Below, piece by piece: positions 13,506 to 58,603 of a DNA stretch of 64,000 nucleotides. The DNA is taken from IMG/VR virus record IMGVR_UViG_3300024346_000022, positions 32,748 to 96,747 of that record; one strand, written 5' to 3'. The stretch is from a virus. Every line of letters begins with the position of its first letter. Position 1 is the stretch's first letter. The translations under genes and the position numbers were made by a program. Under the pieces are notes generated by a model, which saw only the letters and a program-made list of their open reading frames with translations, ran no database searches and was not told the DNA's origin.

Positions 13506-16500
13506 TTAGTCCTCCGTATCGAAGAAAAACATTTGCCATAGTCTTGCATTTTCCATAACTGTTCCAAAATATTCGGAGGCAGAATGAATAGCACTCGCAT
13601 CAAAAATTACAAGGCGATTGTATACATTTCCAAGAACATCCACGGGTTCCCAAGGAGTTCCATCTAAATGACATTCTCCAGGAATATCTTTCCAGGCAGC
13701 ATCCCAACCTTCCTCATAATAAGTTCGTGCTCTCGTTTGCTTATGGGCATATAATGTAGTTCCGCACTGAAAAGGTGCGTTAGGAGTCAGATATAACATT
13801 CCTCCCCACTTTTGACTGTCGCAGTGATAAACCAGTGGTTCTCCTGACCAAGCAATTTGAAATCTTCCGTTCATTCCGTGCTCTTGCCAAGCAGTTATTT
13901 TTCTGCCTATAATTTCTTCAAATTTTTCTTTGAGATTTGGGAATAAAAATTGCTGTTCTGTGCGTCTTCCAATAAAACCTCTGCCATATCCACCCTCGGC
14001 AAATTCTTGTTCTAATGCAAATTTACGAATTTCATCCGGATTATCATAAAAATTATCTACAATCCATGAGGTTGATTTTGAATTTGTCATTAAATCAAAC
14101 TTAGATGTGGATCCATATGAAAAATAAATCATAAACTGACCAAGACAAGTAGGTTTCCACCAGTCTCTAAAATCATACAAGTATTGATCATTAAAAATAT
14201 CTTTAGTTACATCTTTACCATTCCTTTCATATACATGAAGATCTGAACAATCATTCAAATACAAATTACGAAATTCAATAAATCGCTCTACAGCATTTTG
14301 ATGATCATTAATATGCCATTCGCCGGCAAAATTTGTAACATTATTTCGAATGAATTCATAATTATCCTTTGTAAAGATTGAATACTCCCCACCCTCACAA
14401 TCGAATTTTAAGAAATCAATTTTAGAAATATTATACTCCTTAATAATTTGTTCAAATGTAGTTGTAGAATATGAATTTCCTTCATGGTCATATATATAAA
14501 CTCCATTTTCGGGTATTGATTTTATTTCTTCTTTATCCGAAATTGCTTTATTAATAAAAGTCACTGGACCGTGAGAAACATTTTTTAGTAAAGAATCTAT
14601 AATAGTATTAGATGGTTCAATACAATAAACTTCTTTTGGTTTTTTATCTAAAATTGAATAAGTAAATGATCCATAGTTCGCACCAAAATCAAACACGATA
14701 TCATTAGGTTTTACCTCTTGATGTTTTTCATATGTTCTATGAACAAAATTTTCATTCGTAAATAATTGCACATATTCTTCACTAAGATTTCCCCAATCAA
14801 ATTCTGGAGCAGTTGGATAATTAGAAATAACTTCACTCTCTTTTTTTTCATTTTCTTCCGAAGTCAACTTTTCTCTCACATAAATTTCATTATATCCAAG
14901 TTGAGAATGTTTTATATAATTTCTATCATTCATAAAAGGTTCGTAATTTAAATTATTTTGAAAATTTTCCAATACAATTACCTTCGGAAGATATTTTTCT
15001 TGGTCAAAACCCATCATAACTTCAAGTTCCCAACCCTCAGTATCTATTGATAATATATCAATACTGCTTACATCTATTTTATCCAATAAAGTATTCAGTT
15101 TAATCGTCTGTACTTCAATAACTTCTTGAGTATTATGCTCCGGAACATTATCATACTTTATTCCCAGTGAAGAAAAACTCACCTCATCATTTTCTTGAGA
15201 GTACCAATTATCGTTATTGTAATTGATAGTAAAAGTTGTTTCTTTCTCTTCATTAGAACAAGCATACTGATATACTTCACTATTATTATCTCTGTGCTGC
15301 TTTACAAATTTTGGATTAGGTTCGACTGCAATTGTTCTCCATCCATAATTTCTAAAATGTTTCGAGTTGCTTATGAATTCTTGAGGTCCAGCACCAACTT
15401 CAACCATTATCCCCTTATAACCTAAATCTGGGAAAAAATTTTCACGCAGATATTTGTCAGTTTCAAACTCGGAATAAAATTTATTACAAAAAATATAATC
15501 TTCTGCATTTTTTGTATCTTCATTTTTATCTTTCATAATATTAATAATTCGTTCATTCACTAAATCAGGATGAACCCACCAATCTTCAAATGAAGAAATT
15601 CCATCTGGAGATATATCATTAACAACTAAAACATATCCTTTGCTTTTCAAGAAATCTCTTGATTTTTGACGATATGATCTGGTCACATCAATATAATAAT
15701 CGTGTTCATAAGTAATAACCGCAAATTTATACTTATCAAATGGTATTTTTAACATACATTCATAAGTATTTCTTGCTGGTTCTATGTCCAGTTGAAGATA
15801 ATCAATTGCGGTTTCTTGAAAATTTTCCTTTAGGAGTTTTTCATAATTTATATCCAAAGCATCTTGATTCAATACTTTAGTTTTTGGTCTTTCTTTCGTA
15901 TATTCTTTTACAAATGTTTCATCTAATTCAATTGAAACACCTCTCCAGTTAAATTTCTCTTCTAAAAGAGCGGTATTGTTTCTATCAAAGGGTTTTGCTC
16001 CTCCTATTTCAAGAAAAGTTCCATTGTTTTTTCCGTTCAATACAGAAAGAACGAATATATCCTGAAGAACTTGTGAATAATTTTTTTCGATTGTATCAGA
16101 ATTTTTAAACTTAAATCTCAATTGATTAAATTTTGTCTTATCAAAATATACTGCAGATTGAGAATTTGGTCCAAGACCAATATGCATAATTTTATCTTCA
16201 ACCAAGAACCGATATTCAGAATTCATATCGTTCCAATATTCATCAACAAGGGAATGAAATAAATCTCTAGATTCTTTCATCTTACCCCACCACCAAGAAG
16301 AAATTGCTTTTTGATATACTAAAAGATATCTTCCTTCATAGTCTGGAATATTAATTGGTTCAATTTCTTTATCATAACAATTTAAACCAAGGATAGAATA
16401 AGTATAAACTTGATCCCATTCTTGTTTTTTTTCATAGATTAAACATAAGAAATAATATGCTTCTGGTCTTTCCGGTAGAATGGACAAGGCACTATGAATT

Positions 16501-30587: not shown

Positions 30588-30797
30588 TTAGTTCTTATAA
30601 AGGTCTTCTAATCTTTCTTTGGTGAGGTCAACATATAAAAGTTCATCACCTTCTTTTGGTGCCTCTGGGTGTTGAGGTTTTCTTGGAGTTCTCATTTCTT
30701 TATTGATGGATTGGATGTTTCCCCACATCATCGCAAAGGCACCTCCGGCGATGACTGCGAAGAATGTGAAGTAGATGAAGATTAGAAAGGGGTTCAT
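30588..30797 (-). CDS. DUF2973-like membrane protein
   Basis: TM helix, AFAMMWGNI, HPEAP..GDELLYVDL. Confidence 0.7.
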   Translation of the reverse strand: MNPFLIFIYFTFFAVIAGGAFAMMWGNIQSINKEMRTPRKPQHPEAPKEGDELLYVDLTKERLEDLYKN

Positions 30798-31504
30798 TTT
30801 CTTCCAATCCTCCAACCATCACCAGGGCATTCTAACACAAGTTTACAATTTCCGAGACCATCATTCCACCATTTTTTACCTTTCTTTGCTTCACTTAATT
30901 TTTTCCGGGTTTCTTCTGTTGGTTGTTTACCTTTATGTGCTTCACTCATTTTCTTTCTAGTTTCTTCTGAATATTTTCTTCCTATCATATATTGATTACC
31001 TTTTTGTGCCTCACCAACTTTTCTTTTAGTTTCGTCTGAAAGTTTTTTACCAACATTCCAAGTATTTCCAATCATTCTCTGTCTGATTTTATCTTTGTGT
31101 TCCTCCGATAGTTTTATTCCTTTTCTTTTTTCACTTATTTGTCGTTTTTGTTCTTCACTCATTTCTTTCCCATAGTTGGGATTTTTTTCACCGACTCTTA
31201 GTTCACTTAATTTTTTTCTTGTTTCTTCACTTACTAAAAGTCCAGAAACACCTTCACCACCATCGGTTCTGTTTCTTAGTATACCAGTTCTCAAATCTTT
31301 TCTACCAAATACGACGATCATATAGATTTCGTGTCTAAATGCTTCTGTTTCGGTTAAGTTCTTTTTAAGAAAGATTATTCTTGATTTATCTTTCGGTGGT
31401 CTTATATCACCTTTATTTTTATTAAATATTCTATTTCCTTTACCTTTACCAATATAGTAAGGGGTACTGTCTTCACGCAAATATGCGTAGGTATAGTAAT
31501 ACAT
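30794..31504 (-). CDS. Free-standing GIY-YIG-like homing endonuclease with NUMOD3 repeats, downstream of psbA
   Basis: YYTYAYLRED..PYYIGKG...LRNRTDGGEG; several SEETRKKxSE repeats. Confidence 0.85.
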   Translation of the reverse strand: MYYYTYAYLREDSTPYYIGKGKGNRIFNKNKGDIRPPKDKSRIIFLKKNLTETEAFRHEIYMIVVFGRKDLRTGILRNRTDGGEGVSGLLVSEETRKKLSELRVGEKNPNYGKEMSEEQKRQISEKRKGIKLSEEHKDKIRQRMIGNTWNVGKKLSDETKRKVGEAQKGNQYMIGRKYSEETRKKMSEAHKGKQPTEETRKKLSEAKKGKKWWNDGLGNCKLVLECPGDGWRIGRK

Positions 31505-31538
31505 TTCTACTCTGTTATGGTTCGCAATACTATTTATA

Positions 31539-31595
31539 CAAGAAAAGGTGCCGAAGCACCTCTTTCACCTGATAGATGCGAACCACACAGGTATT
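31539..31595 (-). ncRNA. Candidate small RNA (second copy of the module) antisense to the leader of endonuclease 30794-31504
   Basis: TATAAATA (31598-31605), ACCTG/CAGGT stem, GAGGTGC-TTCG-GCACCTT plus U-rich tract, TATAAATA (31531-31538). Confidence 0.55.
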
Positions 31596-31659: not shown

Positions 31660-33671
<2,012 letters not shown>

Positions 33672-33830
33672 TTGTTAAAAAGGGGGTAAGTATGAGTTCG
33701 GGGGACGAACTTGGTATAGTATACTCCACGATACCCTCCGTCGTGGATATGAGGGATGCTTTACTTCTCTTGATCCCGGTTTGAGAAGACACGGTTCTCA
33801 GAATTGTCACATTCCTTAACCCCGTGTATG
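33672..33830 (-). promoter_or_regulatory. Long structured psbA 5' leader (possibly a PhotoRC-type motif)
   Basis: About 160 nt with hairpins TCCACGA/TCGTGGA, AGTTCG/CGAACT and TTCTC/GAGAA. Confidence 0.5.
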
Positions 33831-55646: not shown

Positions 55647-57131
55647 TCAGAACGTAAACTTAGTCTGAATTACGCCACCCCACTTGGAGGAGTTTTGATA
55701 ACGTTGGTTGTTATCAGCATAAAATATTGCCGGAGTAATACTAATGTTATCGGTGACTTGATACTTATAGAAGATCTCAATCATTAGAGCATCAGATACT
55801 TTTGAAACTTCTGCCGAGGGTGCTTGACCCACAGCAACGCCAGCACTATTACCCTTGGCAAATACATCAGACCACTGAAGACCAGCAAACCACGAATCCG
55901 AGTTCGTAGCACCATTTTTACCAACACGACCAGTTACGGAGTTATATCCATAACCAGCACTGATAGAAGGAACCCAACCAGATTCGACCGGTTGCCAATA
56001 AGCATTCAGAGCAACAGAGTTTGATTCCTGACCACTATCAAGAGCACCATTGGCACCCAGAAGACCGTTGTAGGTGCGAGGACGAGTGTTGACACCACCA
56101 TAGCGGTAACCAACAGCAACTCCCCACTGAGGAGCACGATAACCCACCTGAGCGAGCACGTTTAGACCACCATCAGAATCAAATACACCTGTTTCAGAAA
56201 ACTCACCATCTTGTGCGACATAGTTCACACCAGCCATGAAACCACCTTGACCTTTTTGAGTAGGTTGTTTCCATTGAGCACCGAAACCAGCACCAGTTGC
56301 CTTGTTATAGACACCAGAAGTACCAGCAAGTTGGAAAAAGTCAAGGATTTCTGACTTATAGGCAGAAGGAATCCACGACATCTCGGTATTACGAACCAAA
56401 GGACCAGCAGTTAGAGTTACACTCTTACCGACTGGGAATTGATAGTAAAGACGATCAATCACTGCTTGATCGGAATAAGATTCTGCCTTATCAACTTTGA
56501 ACAGAGAAGAGGAAGAACCAAAAGGATCAGAACTAAAGTTTCCTGAACGGAGACGAGTACGAAGCAAATCCTTACCCGTGAATGAAGTATCAAAGTTCAG
56601 ACGGAGATCATAGTTGAATGCGGTGTTGCCGACGTTTCCACCTTTATTCGTTTTAAGACCAGGAACTCCACCAAGAACAAAGTTTGCTTCACCCTTGAGT
56701 TTGGTTGTAGTAGAGAATTGTGTTGCCTGAAGTTGACCAACTTTATTCTCAAGACCATCCACACGAGAAGTCAATACAGTCAATTCTGCATCAAATTCTG
56801 CTAGGAGTTTTTTGAGTTCATCAGTAACTTCTGTTACACGATCTAGACAAGCATTAAGAAGAGCAGCAGCCTCAAAGCGAGTCATTGACTGACCGCCCTT
56901 ATAGGTTCCGTTAGGATATCCTGCCACACAACCATAACGCTCTACAAGATTGCTGAGTGCTTGATATGCCCAGTCAGTTGTTTGGACATCAGAGAATTGA
57001 GTAATGCTAGTAACTTGTTCCGAAGAGGCATATTGATTTACACCCTCAAGATTCAGTTCAGCAGCAGTTGCGGTAGGAGCGATAAGTCCCAGAGCAACCG
57101 GAGCAAGCATTAATTGTTGAAAAAATTTCAT
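55647..57131 (-). CDS. Cyanobacterial outer-membrane porin (SLH plus OprB-like, Som type)
   Basis: QVTSITQFSDV..TDWAYQAL..LVERYGCVAGYP, FSTTTKLKGE, terminal TKFTF. Confidence 0.92.
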   Translation of the reverse strand: MKFFQQLMLAPVALGLIAPTATAAELNLEGVNQYASSEQVTSITQFSDVQTTDWAYQALSNLVERYGCVAGYPNGTYKGGQSMTRFEAAALLNACLDRVTEVTDELKKLLAEFDAELTVLTSRVDGLENKVGQLQATQFSTTTKLKGEANFVLGGVPGLKTNKGGNVGNTAFNYDLRLNFDTSFTGKDLLRTRLRSGNFSSDPFGSSSSLFKVDKAESYSDQAVIDRLYYQFPVGKSVTLTAGPLVRNTEMSWIPSAYKSEILDFFQLAGTSGVYNKATGAGFGAQWKQPTQKGQGGFMAGVNYVAQDGEFSETGVFDSDGGLNVLAQVGYRAPQWGVAVGYRYGGVNTRPRTYNGLLGANGALDSGQESNSVALNAYWQPVESGWVPSISAGYGYNSVTGRVGKNGATNSDSWFAGLQWSDVFAKGNSAGVAVGQAPSAEVSKVSDALMIEIFYKYQVTDNISITPAIFYADNNQRYQNSSKWGGVIQTKFTF

Positions 57132-57190
57132 ATAGTTTGTTAAGAAATACAACTACGATGTTTATTTAGCTCCCCTGATATTTGAGGGGA

Positions 57191-57261
57191 AGCGGATACA
57201 CGGATTTGAACCGAGGATAAAAGTTTGGAAAACTCTTGTGTTACCACTACACCATATCCGC
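57191..57261 (-). tRNA. tRNA-Gly(UCC)
   Basis: GCGGATA stem; TT TCC AA loop; GGTTCAAATCC. Confidence 0.9.
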
Positions 57262-57271
57262 ATTTGAGAGA

Positions 57272-57300
57272 ATTATAAGACATAATGAGTATTATGTCAA
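57272..57300 (-). promoter_or_regulatory. Sigma70 promoter with a palindromic spacer, in front of tRNA-Gly
   Basis: TTGACA-17-TATAAT containing GACATAAT-ACTC-ATTATGTC. Confidence 0.75.
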
Positions 57301-57373
57301 GCCCCCAGCGAGGATTTGCACCCGCGACTATCGCTTACAAGGCGATTGTTTTAACTACTACAACTATGGGGGC
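57300..57373 (-). tRNA. tRNA-Thr(UGU)
   Basis: GCCCCCA stem; ATCGC-CT TGT AA-GCGAT; T-loop TGCAAAT. Confidence 0.82.
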
Positions 57374-57375
57374 AA

Positions 57376-57448
57376 CTCCCCTCCTAGGTAACGCTCCTAG
57401 CTATCTCGAATTAACAGTTCGGCCCATTCGCTTGCTTGGTCGAGGGGA
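57376..57448 (-). tRNA. tRNA-Asn(GUU), atypical
   Basis: TCCCCTC/GAGGGGA stem; CGAA-CT GTT AA-TTCG; T-arm CTAGG-AGCGTTA-CCTAG. Confidence 0.75.
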
Positions 57449-57452
57449 ATGA

Positions 57453-57535
57453 TGGTAGGAGGGATTTCTATGTGCCGATAGAATCACCTTTCACATCATC
57501 TAGCAGAAACCAGAGAGCGGTGTTGCACTTCCTAC
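57453..57535 (-). ncRNA. Orphan structured RNA in the tRNA cluster, ending ...UACCA
   Basis: GTAGGA/TCCTAC closing stem, two internal hairpins, AGTGCAACA and GTGAAAGG single-stranded motifs; promoter at 57566-57594. Confidence 0.5.
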
Positions 57536-57590
57536 ATTTTGATAGAGGCGCCTCTATCAGTTTATATATTACACCATTTCTGGGATGGTG

Positions 57591-58061
57591 TCAAGTCCAA
57601 AGATTATGATCATATTCCCAATGACAATTTGGGCACAAAGGCATTATATTTTGTTTTGAGTTTATTTCACTAATCAATATATCATCACTAAAGGAAGAAA
57701 TGGGTTTTATATGTGCAACTTCTATATGTTTATTATATCCACATTTAAGACACTCAGTAAATCCAAGTTTTTTAGCAATTGCTCTCGCTCTTGTTCTTAC
57801 CAAGGAGAATGCCGATGACTTGTGGTGATTTTCATATATCGCTTCTTTAAGAGTCATATCTTTTACTTCTTTATTCTTTATCCATATCAAATAGTGTTCC
57901 ATACAACGAGCACGATTTGCTGTTATTGGTTTTCCACAATCCAAACATTTATGTTCAGGTTTTCTTTTAGGAACCTTTTTATTGTTATAAGAAGCAGCAC
58001 AACTTCTACTGCAAAATTTGGGATTAGAAGTATGCTTTTCGCAAAATAAACATTTAATCAT
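57591..58061 (-). CDS. HNH homing endonuclease with Zn-finger N-terminus, within the tRNA cluster
   Basis: KFCSRSC, CLDCG, CLKCG...EVAHIKP...NIMPLCPNCHWEYD. Confidence 0.88.
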   Translation of the reverse strand: MIKCLFCEKHTSNPKFCSRSCAASYNNKKVPKRKPEHKCLDCGKPITANRARCMEHYLIWIKNKEVKDMTLKEAIYENHHKSSAFSLVRTRARAIAKKLGFTECLKCGYNKHIEVAHIKPISSFSDDILISEINSKQNIMPLCPNCHWEYDHNLWT

Positions 58062-58063
58062 AA

Positions 58064-58105
58064 TGGAACCTTTAGTTACTATTATTTATACGCTAAAAGG
58101 TTCCA
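58064..58105 (-). promoter_or_regulatory. Late promoter inside an RBS-sequestering hairpin
   Basis: TGGAACCTTT...TATAAATA...AAAGGTTCCA immediately before the ATG. Confidence 0.7.
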
Positions 58106-58109
58106 AAAA

Positions 58110-58228
58110 CGTCTCGTGCAAGATTCGAACTTGCGACCCACTGCTTATCACCTTATAAGGAATTGAACCTTATCATAACCACCCGGAAGGCGGAAGGCAG
58201 TTGTTCTAATCCGCTGAACTAACGAGAC
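58110..58228 (-). tRNA. tRNA-Arg(UCU) interrupted within the anticodon by a 45-nt insert (58148-58192)
   Basis: Removing the insert gives the GTCTCGT stem, ACTGC-CT TCT AA-GCAGT and GCAAG-TTCGAAT-CTTGC: a canonical cloverleaf. Confidence 0.85.
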
Positions 58229-58266
58229 ATAAGACAATCATAACAGACGATGCTAGGATTGTCAAA

Positions 58267-58339
58267 TGGGTTCGGTGGGGTACGATCCCACAACCTTTGC
58301 CTTAAAAGGGCACTATTCTTCCAGTTGAATTACGAACCC
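58267..58339 (-). tRNA. tRNA-Lys(UUU)
   Basis: GGGTTCG stem; TGCC-CT TTT AA-GGCA; T-loop ATCGTAC. Confidence 0.85.
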
Positions 58340-58414
58340 ATAAGAAGAGAAGACCCAGACCTTCTCTATGGTCTCTCAACCACCCTCATAGAATAGCACC
58401 CAAGACCCGTGCTG

Positions 58415-58603
58415 TCAATCCTTTGCTTCCTTACGGGCGTTCTTTTCTTCGGTAATCTCGCCTCTACGGGTCTTTACCAGTTTTGACATTTCTTGTAGTG
58501 CCTTGCGAGCACGAGTTCCGGCAGCATTATTACCGGCAGCGAACTTTTCGTCTTCTACTTTCCATTCTTCAACGGCATTCAGTAGTTCTTGTGATGTAGA
58601 CAT
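58415..58603 (-). CDS. Histone H1-like (Hc1-type) small protein
   Basis: EKFAAGNNAAGTRARKALQE motif; start refined to MSTSQ. Confidence 0.65.
   Translation of the reverse strand: MSTSQELLNAVEEWKVEDEKFAAGNNAAGTRARKALQEMSKLVKTRRGEITEEKNARKEAKD

Follow-up and report, generated by a model that had tools for sequence, protein, structure and literature searches.

How is a working tRNA to be made from a gene that is interrupted between two letters of its own anticodon? The question is raised by a tRNA-Arg(UCU) gene at positions 58110-58228, minus strand, of the DNA analyzed here, a stretch of 64,000 nucleotides (nt) covering positions 32,748 to 96,747 of IMG/VR virus record IMGVR_UViG_3300024346_000022 and referred to below as the window. 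The record that contains it (G000; 96.7 kb, 43% complete, 36% G+C) looks like that of a T4-like cyanophage, judging from a PhotoRC-II leader, the psbA gene, and its nearest cultured relatives, the Synechococcus phages S-SRM01, B3, and B23. The initial annotation had described the 45 nt that split this gene as a tRNA nested inside a tRNA anticodon and as a candidate new class of intron excised by RNase P and RNase Z. Its observation is confirmed and its interpretation is partly supported: the insert is real and structured, it recurs, and its kind has barely been described in phage tRNAs; we infer a mechanism for its removal. Our leading reading, held tentatively, is that of a protein-spliced mini-intron shaped as the top half of a tRNA, which may be cut out by RNase P and RNase Z and sealed by a phage RNA ligase of the T4 Rnl1 type.

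A tRNA-Arg(UCU) gene split within its anticodon

Re-reading of 58110-58228 on the minus strand, letter for letter, returns the same sequence as first given. The gene consists of the following parts.

58193-58228, minus strand: 5′ exon of the tRNA-Arg(UCU), with the acceptor 5′ strand, the D arm with A20, the 5′ strand of the anticodon stem, and loop bases C32-C35 (RF00005, ARAGORN, compensatory pairs relative to the homologue L003)
58148-58192, minus strand: 45-nt insert (mini-intron) between anticodon bases C35 and U36 (empty versus filled alleles; homologues L003, L089, L091, L094, L303, L304, and L305)
58110-58147, minus strand: 3′ exon of the tRNA-Arg(UCU), with U36-A38, the 3′ strand of the anticodon stem, the variable loop, the T arm, the acceptor 3′ strand, and discriminator G (sequence, RF00005, pairs relative to L003)

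The Rfam tRNA model RF00005 aligns end-to-end over the 119 nt of the gene (53.2 bits against a gathering score of 29; model positions 1-71) and skips 48 nt within the anticodon loop. When the exons are joined without the 45 nt, ARAGORN identifies a tRNA-Arg(tct) with the anticodon UCU and a 7-nt loop. The exons match annotated tRNA-Arg genes of other phages, and the outer helices, which belong to the tRNA body, are 100% paired, with five compensatory pairs relative to L003. The D loop carries A20, an Arg identity element, and the discriminator is G, the same combination as in E. coli argU. Default ARAGORN missed the split gene, and its intron mode labels the gene Gly(tcc) by assuming the canonical 37/38 intron position. 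We reject a Gly(UCC) tRNA with a 37/38 intron, since an empty-site allele exists, the body is of the Arg type, and the same cluster already has an intact tRNA-Gly(UCC). Standard tRNA finders miss or mislabel genes of this kind, and inventories of phage tRNAs are therefore biased.

The exact ends of the insert are provided by alleles that lack it. The empty-site search used a 25-nt pattern across the joined anticodon arm, which is present in at least 120 IMG/VR contigs. In eight IMG/VR contigs the uninterrupted allele corresponds to the joined exons of the split L003 homologue, with identity over the 66 nt compared, a comparison that reached to within 5 nt of the 3′ end. The letters that flank the insert ends permit no sliding. 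The filled and empty alleles, together with flanks that cannot slide, therefore place the insert exactly at 58148-58192, between C35 and U36, and the proposed interruption at 35/36 by 45 nt is borne out by the empty-site alleles. The insert sequence occurs once in the window.

No second tRNA-Arg(UCU) was found in the 43%-complete fragment, and AGA makes up 56% of the Arg codons in the long open reading frames (ORFs) of the phage. In a related genome described below (G006), a split Arg(UCU) and a split Thr(UGU) gene are the sole genes for those isoacceptors; indeed, in each genome with a member of the insert family, the split gene is the only copy found of its isoacceptor. This sole-copy status, together with the usage of AGA, argues for the split genes being working copies. 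A length of 45 nt rules out a ribozyme, and the interrupted gene is the sole tRNA-Arg(UCU) visible in the incomplete record of an AGA-heavy phage; together these points imply a protein-based route of splicing.

Fold and relatives of the insert

The insert can be divided into the elements below, with insert nt counted in the orientation of the tRNA.

58187-58192, minus strand: 5′ strand (CGCCUU, insert nt 1-6) of an acceptor-like end helix, pairing with 58149-58154; 4/6 pairs compensatory, all cells paired
58168-58172, minus strand: 5′ strand (UAAGG, insert nt 21-25) of a T-arm-like hairpin, pairing with 58156-58160; 2/5 pairs compensatory, one switching between A-U and G-U
58161-58167, minus strand: 7-nt loop UUCAAUU, which by sequence fits the T-loop consensus UUCRANY; invariant in five close variants
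58156-58160, minus strand: 3′ strand (CCUUA, insert nt 33-37) of the T-arm-like hairpin (covariation)
58149-58154, minus strand: 3′ strand (AAGGUG, insert nt 39-44) of the acceptor-like end helix (covariation)
58148, minus strand: one unpaired, discriminator-like A that ends the insert at its 3′ side; an unpaired A in all four lineages, with two A's here in L305

These elements make up a minihelix of 6 (plus one mismatch) and 5 layers, approximately 12 layers in all with one 3′ A, and this geometry is retained with covariation in four lineages. The ends of the insert are the first base of the acceptor-like helix and the single discriminator-like A. The shuffle test scored sequences for a helix that starts from base 1, a hairpin with a 7-nt loop that abuts the 3′ strand of this helix, and one unpaired 3′ base. 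An end-anchored minihelix of 7 + 5 layers with a 1-nt 3′ overhang is found in 576 of 2,000,000 shuffles (3e-4), and the geometry plus a TTCRANN loop in 2 of 2,000,000 (1e-6). When the insert is folded alone its stability is not significant (z = -0.75), and the minimum-energy fold of the window insert favors a local CGCCU/GGGUG hairpin that competes with the end helix. This local hairpin is rejected, as it is not conserved in the relatives, each of which has the same minihelix as its single-sequence minimum-energy fold. Support for the predicted end helix comes from homologues, not from folding energy.

Close variants of the insert are present in L003, L089, L091, and L094 and in contigs of sequencing runs X7 and X20. 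The differences among them are confined to the linker (insert nt 16-20) or to an A-U to G-U switch that preserves pairing. Three more distant members were found by searching genomes that encode a homologue of the RNA ligase of G000, which is described in the next section.

L303, genome G006: Arg(UCU), insert of 46 nt at site 35/36; covariance model 49 bits
L304, genome G006: Thr(UGU), insert of 45 nt at site 35/36; covariance model 44 bits
L305, genome G019/G020: most likely Ile(UAU), insert of 46-47 nt, at site 35/36 under the Ile reading with the boundary one base off; covariance model 20.5 bits

The covariance model was built from window-type sequences alone, and it recognizes L303-L305 over its full length. 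The tRNA of L305 is most likely Ile(UAU), of which it would be the sole copy, the alternative reading being Val; the complete genome G019 has an intact Val(UAC) and no intact Ile(UAU), which favors the Ile(UAU) reading. In the family alignment, which was fitted to the model and comprises four lineages only, all 112 of 112 cells are paired, compared with 37-55% in controls with slid partners. Compensatory changes on both sides are seen in 6/11 pairs overall, and as the element list shows they fall in both helices.

The fold first proposed was a stack of 6 + 6 base pairs (bp) with a T-loop and a GG-containing linker. The end helix and a 5-bp hairpin covary, while the sixth pair of the "T stem" (A20-U38) is optional and is lost in L091. 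The T-loop and the GG linker are present and invariant in the window lineage, but they are absent as shared features in L303-L305. The loops of these relatives are AGCAUUA or GGCAGUA, such that only C3, A4, and U6 are constant across the family, and the GG linker is not kept, with no GG at all in L304 and L305. The initial annotation had looked to homologues for retention of both the pairing and the T-loop; the pairing is retained at 100% with covariation, but the T-loop consensus is specific to one lineage. Compared with 4227 Rfam families, the insert has its best two matches to tRNA (14.7 bits, E = 0.39) and mascRNA (12.5 bits, E = 1.5). Both are below the gathering scores, which leaves no significant match to a tRNA-like family in Rfam, and a known ribozyme or RNA family is rejected, as these two weak matches are the only ones at E <= 10.

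The family is small in the data searched. Three pattern scans of IMG/VR returned L002 and L003 only, and L089, L091, and L094 came from a metagenome scan, which also gave six chance matches. A structural regular expression and covariance model R1, applied to 1.6 Mb of phage tRNA clusters and to 46 control records, gave no further members, and the insert is in no record of cultured phages (INPHARED). The intron mode of ARAGORN, applied to tRNA clusters, mostly fused neighboring tRNAs and was useless as a screen. One chance match of the pattern scan, at approximately 190-290 on the minus strand of L086 (metagenome contig Ga0307377_10026376), is an odd tRNA-like gene with two T-arm-like hairpins inside an acceptor-type stem.

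Proposed routes of removal

In the reading that we tentatively prefer, the precursor would fold as a normal tRNA-Arg(UCU), with the 12-layer minihelix jutting from its anticodon loop, its acceptor-like helix and T-arm-like hairpin forming one stack and a single 3′ A left unpaired. The minihelix would then be a substrate for the host enzymes by which the CCA-less tRNAs of the phage are trimmed. RNase P would cut before its first base to leave ...CUUC-3′OH, and RNase Z would cut after the unpaired A to leave 5′p-UAAG... The tRNA body would hold both halves, as in a tRNA that an anticodon nuclease has nicked, and the T4 Rnl1-type ligase of the phage would join them into the restored loop CUUCUAA. 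As a DNA element, the insert might spread or persist by recombination, and it may shield the tRNA gene from an adjoining HNH homing-type endonuclease, as the group I intron of relatives does. No CCA is encoded by the tRNA genes of the phage, the split tRNA-Arg included, and their transcripts thus need an endonuclease to trim the 3′ end after the discriminator in any case. All 14 control genomes, including Synechococcus elongatus, have an RNase Z match; nine of the matches pass the family cut-off, a count that does not place S. elongatus on either side of it. Cutting by RNase P and RNase Z with sealing by Rnl1 is the only model that explains a helix running from insert base 1 to one base before the junction and a 12-layer stack kept by covariation. 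Excision by these two enzymes is plausible but unproven.

An RNA ligase, which the initial annotation had suggested seeking elsewhere in the genome, is indeed encoded there.

G000:727-1893, minus strand, outside the window: RNA ligase of the T4 Rnl1 type (PF09511, 114 bits; phrog_562 "RNA ligase and tail fiber attachment catalyst", 238 bits; weak T4_Rnl1_C domain)

An Rnl2-type ligase, RtcB (PF01139), and EndA (PF01974) were not found in the G000 fragment. Rnl1 is present in every large-enough genome with a family member (G000, G006, and G019/G020); in comparable phages it is rare, with 1 of 46 tRNA-bearing control phage records and 0 of the 10 near-complete ones positive. These 10 Rnl1-negative genomes contain 136 tRNA matches, none of them longer than 92 nt, and the family model has no match in any of the 46 control records. 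Among the best 40 of 1736 phage records that match the ligase, the Synechococcus phage records are three (B3, B23, and BUCT-ZZ01). A 16-mer scan independent of Rnl1 gave one more carrier of the insert, G097 (67% complete), with no Rnl1 in the available part.

Several observations weigh against removal by RNase P, RNase Z, and Rnl1. G006 and G019 were picked from among Rnl1-positive genomes, such that only G000 is unbiased for co-occurrence, and most Rnl1-bearing relatives are without the insert. In the relatives, Rnl1 is directly followed by a P-loop polynucleotide kinase (AAA_33, 75 bits), with Pnkp kinase domains among its relatives in the PDB, and by a HAD_PNKP phosphatase (92 bits). The three genes form a conserved cassette (a split Pnkp) in the phage clade, represented by G000:1-1893 (L004) and L307:4072-6159. 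In G000 the contig end holds the first 91 residues of the kinase ORF, and a second HNH gene (L004:239-760) is inserted between Rnl1 and the kinase; a PF08645 search for Pnkp in G000 itself gave nothing, and the phosphatase is seen in relatives only. Rnl1, kinase, and phosphatase are the classic heal-and-seal repair set for 5′-OH and cyclic-phosphate ends. RNase P and RNase Z do not produce such ends, and healing enzymes are unneeded for those that they do leave. Since the ligase sits in a repair cassette for ends that RNase P and RNase Z do not make, it would have an independent reason for its presence. Recognition of an elbow is probably not a feature of the family, because L303-L305 have neither the T-loop consensus nor the GG linker, and exact cuts by RNase P and RNase Z in L305 would leave an 8-nt anticodon loop. 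The claim that the two cuts fall exactly on the insert boundaries holds up in that the ends fit base 1 of the helix and the lone 3′ A, but L305 departs from it by one base. Finally, the intact exons could reflect recent insertion instead of selection, and the available RNA data are of the unspliced form. Six public runs with this DNA are labeled RNA, all of them kept as assembled contigs; three RNA runs and one DNA run were compared over 57100-58500. No spliced junction is seen in the contigs of those four runs, which cannot show absence, level, or ends, and the single RNA-library contig over the gene (run X20, 181 nt) carries the insert.

Comparison with known systems helps to place the proposed route. 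The insert was held from the outset to be neither a group I intron nor a bulge-helix-bulge (BHB) intron, and this judgment is upheld by the lack of an RF00028 match, the 45-nt length, the 35/36 site, and junctions that face each other across one internal loop. RF00028 finds nothing over 58000-58400 at E <= 1 or in the insert alone at E <= 10, and the ends depart from group I rules, with a 5′ exon ending in C35 (not U) and an insert ending in A (not G). The group I intron of relatives is like the mini-insert in occupying the anticodon loop of the same gene beside the HNH neighbor, in an otherwise intact tRNA, and in alternating with intron-less alleles. It differs in being a ribozyme of approximately 200 nt at 34/35 whose 5′ splice site has a U and whose last base is G, whereas the mini-insert, at 45 nt and 35/36 and without a ribozyme core, must depend on proteins. 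BHB introns are mostly at 37/38 and have two 3-nt bulges 4 bp apart; EndA or Sen enzymes cut them and RtcB or Trl1 seals them. These archaeal and eukaryal tRNA introns resemble the mini-insert in being short, located in the anticodon loop, and spliced by proteins, as is proposed for the mini-insert, which differs in its 35/36 site, in cuts opposed across one internal loop, and in a genome fragment where neither EndA nor RtcB was found.

The mascRNA of MALAT1 (RF01684) is a tRNA-like RNA released by RNase P and RNase Z. As with the insert, an acceptor-like helix is stacked on a T-arm-like hairpin within a longer transcript, but mascRNA is eukaryotic and its flanks are never rejoined, whereas the flanks of the insert would need ligation to give a working tRNA. 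In phage T4, Pnkp and Rnl1 repair tRNA-Lys after PrrC has cut its anticodon loop, a single cut at 33/34 with nothing excised. The proposed route would share with this system a T4 Rnl1-type ligase (plus the kinase and phosphatase in relatives) that seals an anticodon-loop nick while the halves are paired; the T4 reaction is damage repair, not a programmed splice.

The published description that comes closest concerns tRNA introns of Lak megaphages, there called "enigmatic" (Devoto et al. 2019, Nat Microbiol, PMC6784885; main text, Fig. 4, Table S6). These are non-classifiable, they lie in the anticodon region of phage tRNA genes as highly conserved copies, alleles exist with and without the insert, and the intron of a Lak tRNA-Thr(TGT) "itself may encode a tRNA" (PMC6784885). 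Compared by description only, the mini-insert fits this account as an Rfam-unclassifiable anticodon insert with present and absent alleles, while the Lak introns are from gut Prevotella megaphages and the listed inserts are longer, for example Tyr positions 37-129 (PMC6784885). The term "new intron class" was slightly overstated, as tRNA-like introns in phage tRNAs had been noted in that work, which offers no mechanism, covariation analysis, link to a ligase, or minimal 45-nt top-half form (PMC6784885). Full-text searches of the literature yielded no paper that proposes or shows excision by RNase P and RNase Z with ligation.

The only tRNA splicing known from bacteria and their viruses is that of self-splicing group I introns, and Rnl1 ligases are so far not known to act outside repair. 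The locus might represent a fourth way of tRNA splicing and, for bacteria and their viruses, the first tRNA intron that depends on proteins, in which RNase P and RNase Z excise a mimic of the tRNA top half and Rnl1 joins the exons; we regard this wider claim as somewhat doubtful. If it is true, T4-type RNA ligases would gain a physiological role in splicing, tRNA mimicry would be seen to domesticate an insertion, and the insert would be a very compact, enzyme-defined module for RNA excision.

The insert could instead remain unspliced, as selfish or protective DNA that disrupts the target of the neighboring HNH enzyme or travels with that enzyme, in which case the RNA would be dead or non-decoding, for example a decoy for anticodon nucleases. 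This we consider rather unlikely. It draws on the gene next to the tRNA.

57591-58061, minus strand: free-standing HNH endonuclease gene, 156 amino acids (Pfam HNH_2, 37.6 bits), starting 48 nt downstream of the tRNA

This endonuclease family is linked to the tRNA, in that homologues lie within 250 nt of a tRNA-Arg(UCU) in 67 of 80 IMG/VR loci (L005-L084). At those 67 loci the tRNA is intact in 40, carries a group I intron in 26, and carries the mini-insert in 1, the last being that of the window and its twin L002/L005. The group I intron of the relatives is approximately 202 nt long and lies between U34 and C35 (Rfam 61-67 bits). Moreover, the exon allele of L003, which holds the mini-insert there, exists empty in the eight contigs above and, bar one 3′-terminal base, around the group I intron of L016, which makes three states. 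One allele in three states points to recent mobility of the mini-insert, and intact exons alone are therefore no proof of selection after insertion; the group I intron and the mini-insert are interchangeable occupants of the same anticodon. An insert that stays in the RNA would also agree with the one unspliced RNA-library contig. On the other hand, the mini-insert is present without the HNH gene in L003, L089, L091, and G006, and covariation maintains a fold of the RNA, which protection at the DNA level would not need. The split genes are the sole copies of isoacceptors that these AT-rich phages use heavily, and the exons of window-type alleles are invariant while the insert linker drifts. 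Finally, the exons around the mini-insert come from at least three backgrounds and three kinds of tRNA. The HNH/tRNA-Arg(UCU) locus looks like a collaborative-homing system centered on the anticodon. With the same HNH gene next to an uninterrupted tRNA, a tRNA holding the group I intron (34/35), or one holding the mini-intron (35/36), this allelic series is a naturally occurring setting in which to follow the mutual replacement of homing endonucleases and different kinds of intron. Just downstream of the HNH gene in a related cyanophage contig, L006:3491-3740 matches a cyanobacterial or permuted tmRNA (Rfam 71-79 bits).

Alternatively, the insert could be a real intron that is cut by another endonuclease, which would be a metal-independent RNase of phage or host that acts on a helix in the anticodon loop. 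The resulting 5′-OH and 2′,3′-cyclic phosphate ends would be healed by the kinase and phosphatase and sealed by Rnl1, on the model of fungal and plant tRNA splicing by the Sen endonuclease plus Trl1. The conserved Rnl1/P-loop kinase/HAD_PNKP cassette of the relatives, with the start of the kinase ORF at the G000 contig end, would suit this route, as would cuts at a fixed place in the outer anticodon loop of all members (between CUUN and UAA), the misfit of L305 with exact RNase P and RNase Z cuts, and a T-loop that is not conserved family-wide. A second insert class in Rnl1-bearing cyanophages (B23 and G019), described below, hints at a more general splicing route. This alternative is nonetheless unlikely in our view. 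No candidate enzyme was identified, and neither EndA nor RtcB is in the fragment; the repair cassette is explained well enough by defense against host anticodon nucleases. Above all, a different endonuclease leaves unexplained the 12-layer minihelix from base 1 to one base before the junction, the signature of an RNase P and RNase Z substrate. Removal by RNase P, RNase Z, and Rnl1 accounts for that geometry.

A very small self-removing or self-cleaving ribozyme, or a remnant of the group I intron of this locus, is highly improbable even though the same gene in relatives holds, one base upstream, a group I intron that splices itself and the phage is rich in introns (four in psbA, one in another tRNA), as the insert is merely 45 nt, has no Rfam ribozyme or intron match at E <= 10, shows no U-G 5′ splice pair and no terminal G, and lies at 35/36 rather than 34/35. 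A remnant of the relatives' group I intron was rejected for its lack of sequence similarity to the insert and its different insertion site.

Other interrupted genes

A second class of insert, approximately 36-45 nt long, is found in the anticodon-arm region of tRNA-like genes and consists of a hairpin followed by the motif AAC[A/T]GCAA[A/T][A/T]T. It is common to unrelated tRNA bodies at L033:1699-1816, L033:5265-5386, Synechococcus phage B23 (MN695335:220408-220517), and G019:169417-169528 (L306); B23 and G019 also encode Rnl1.

Within the window, the psbA (D1) gene at 31737-33674 on the minus strand is split by apparently four group I introns (31737-31984, 32022-32251, 32488-32740, and 32803-33037; Rfam 56-94 bits), and some of its exons are only approximately 37-62 nt long. 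This intron load is unusually high for a phage gene. The PhotoRC-II leader lies upstream and a GIY-YIG-like ORF just downstream, with 33711-33800 and 30794-31564 listed with the locus. Outside the window, a second split tRNA is present at G000:14265-14562 on the minus strand. ARAGORN reports it as Phe(gaa) with a 212-nt intron, and Rfam places a group I intron at 14341-14535 (53 bits).

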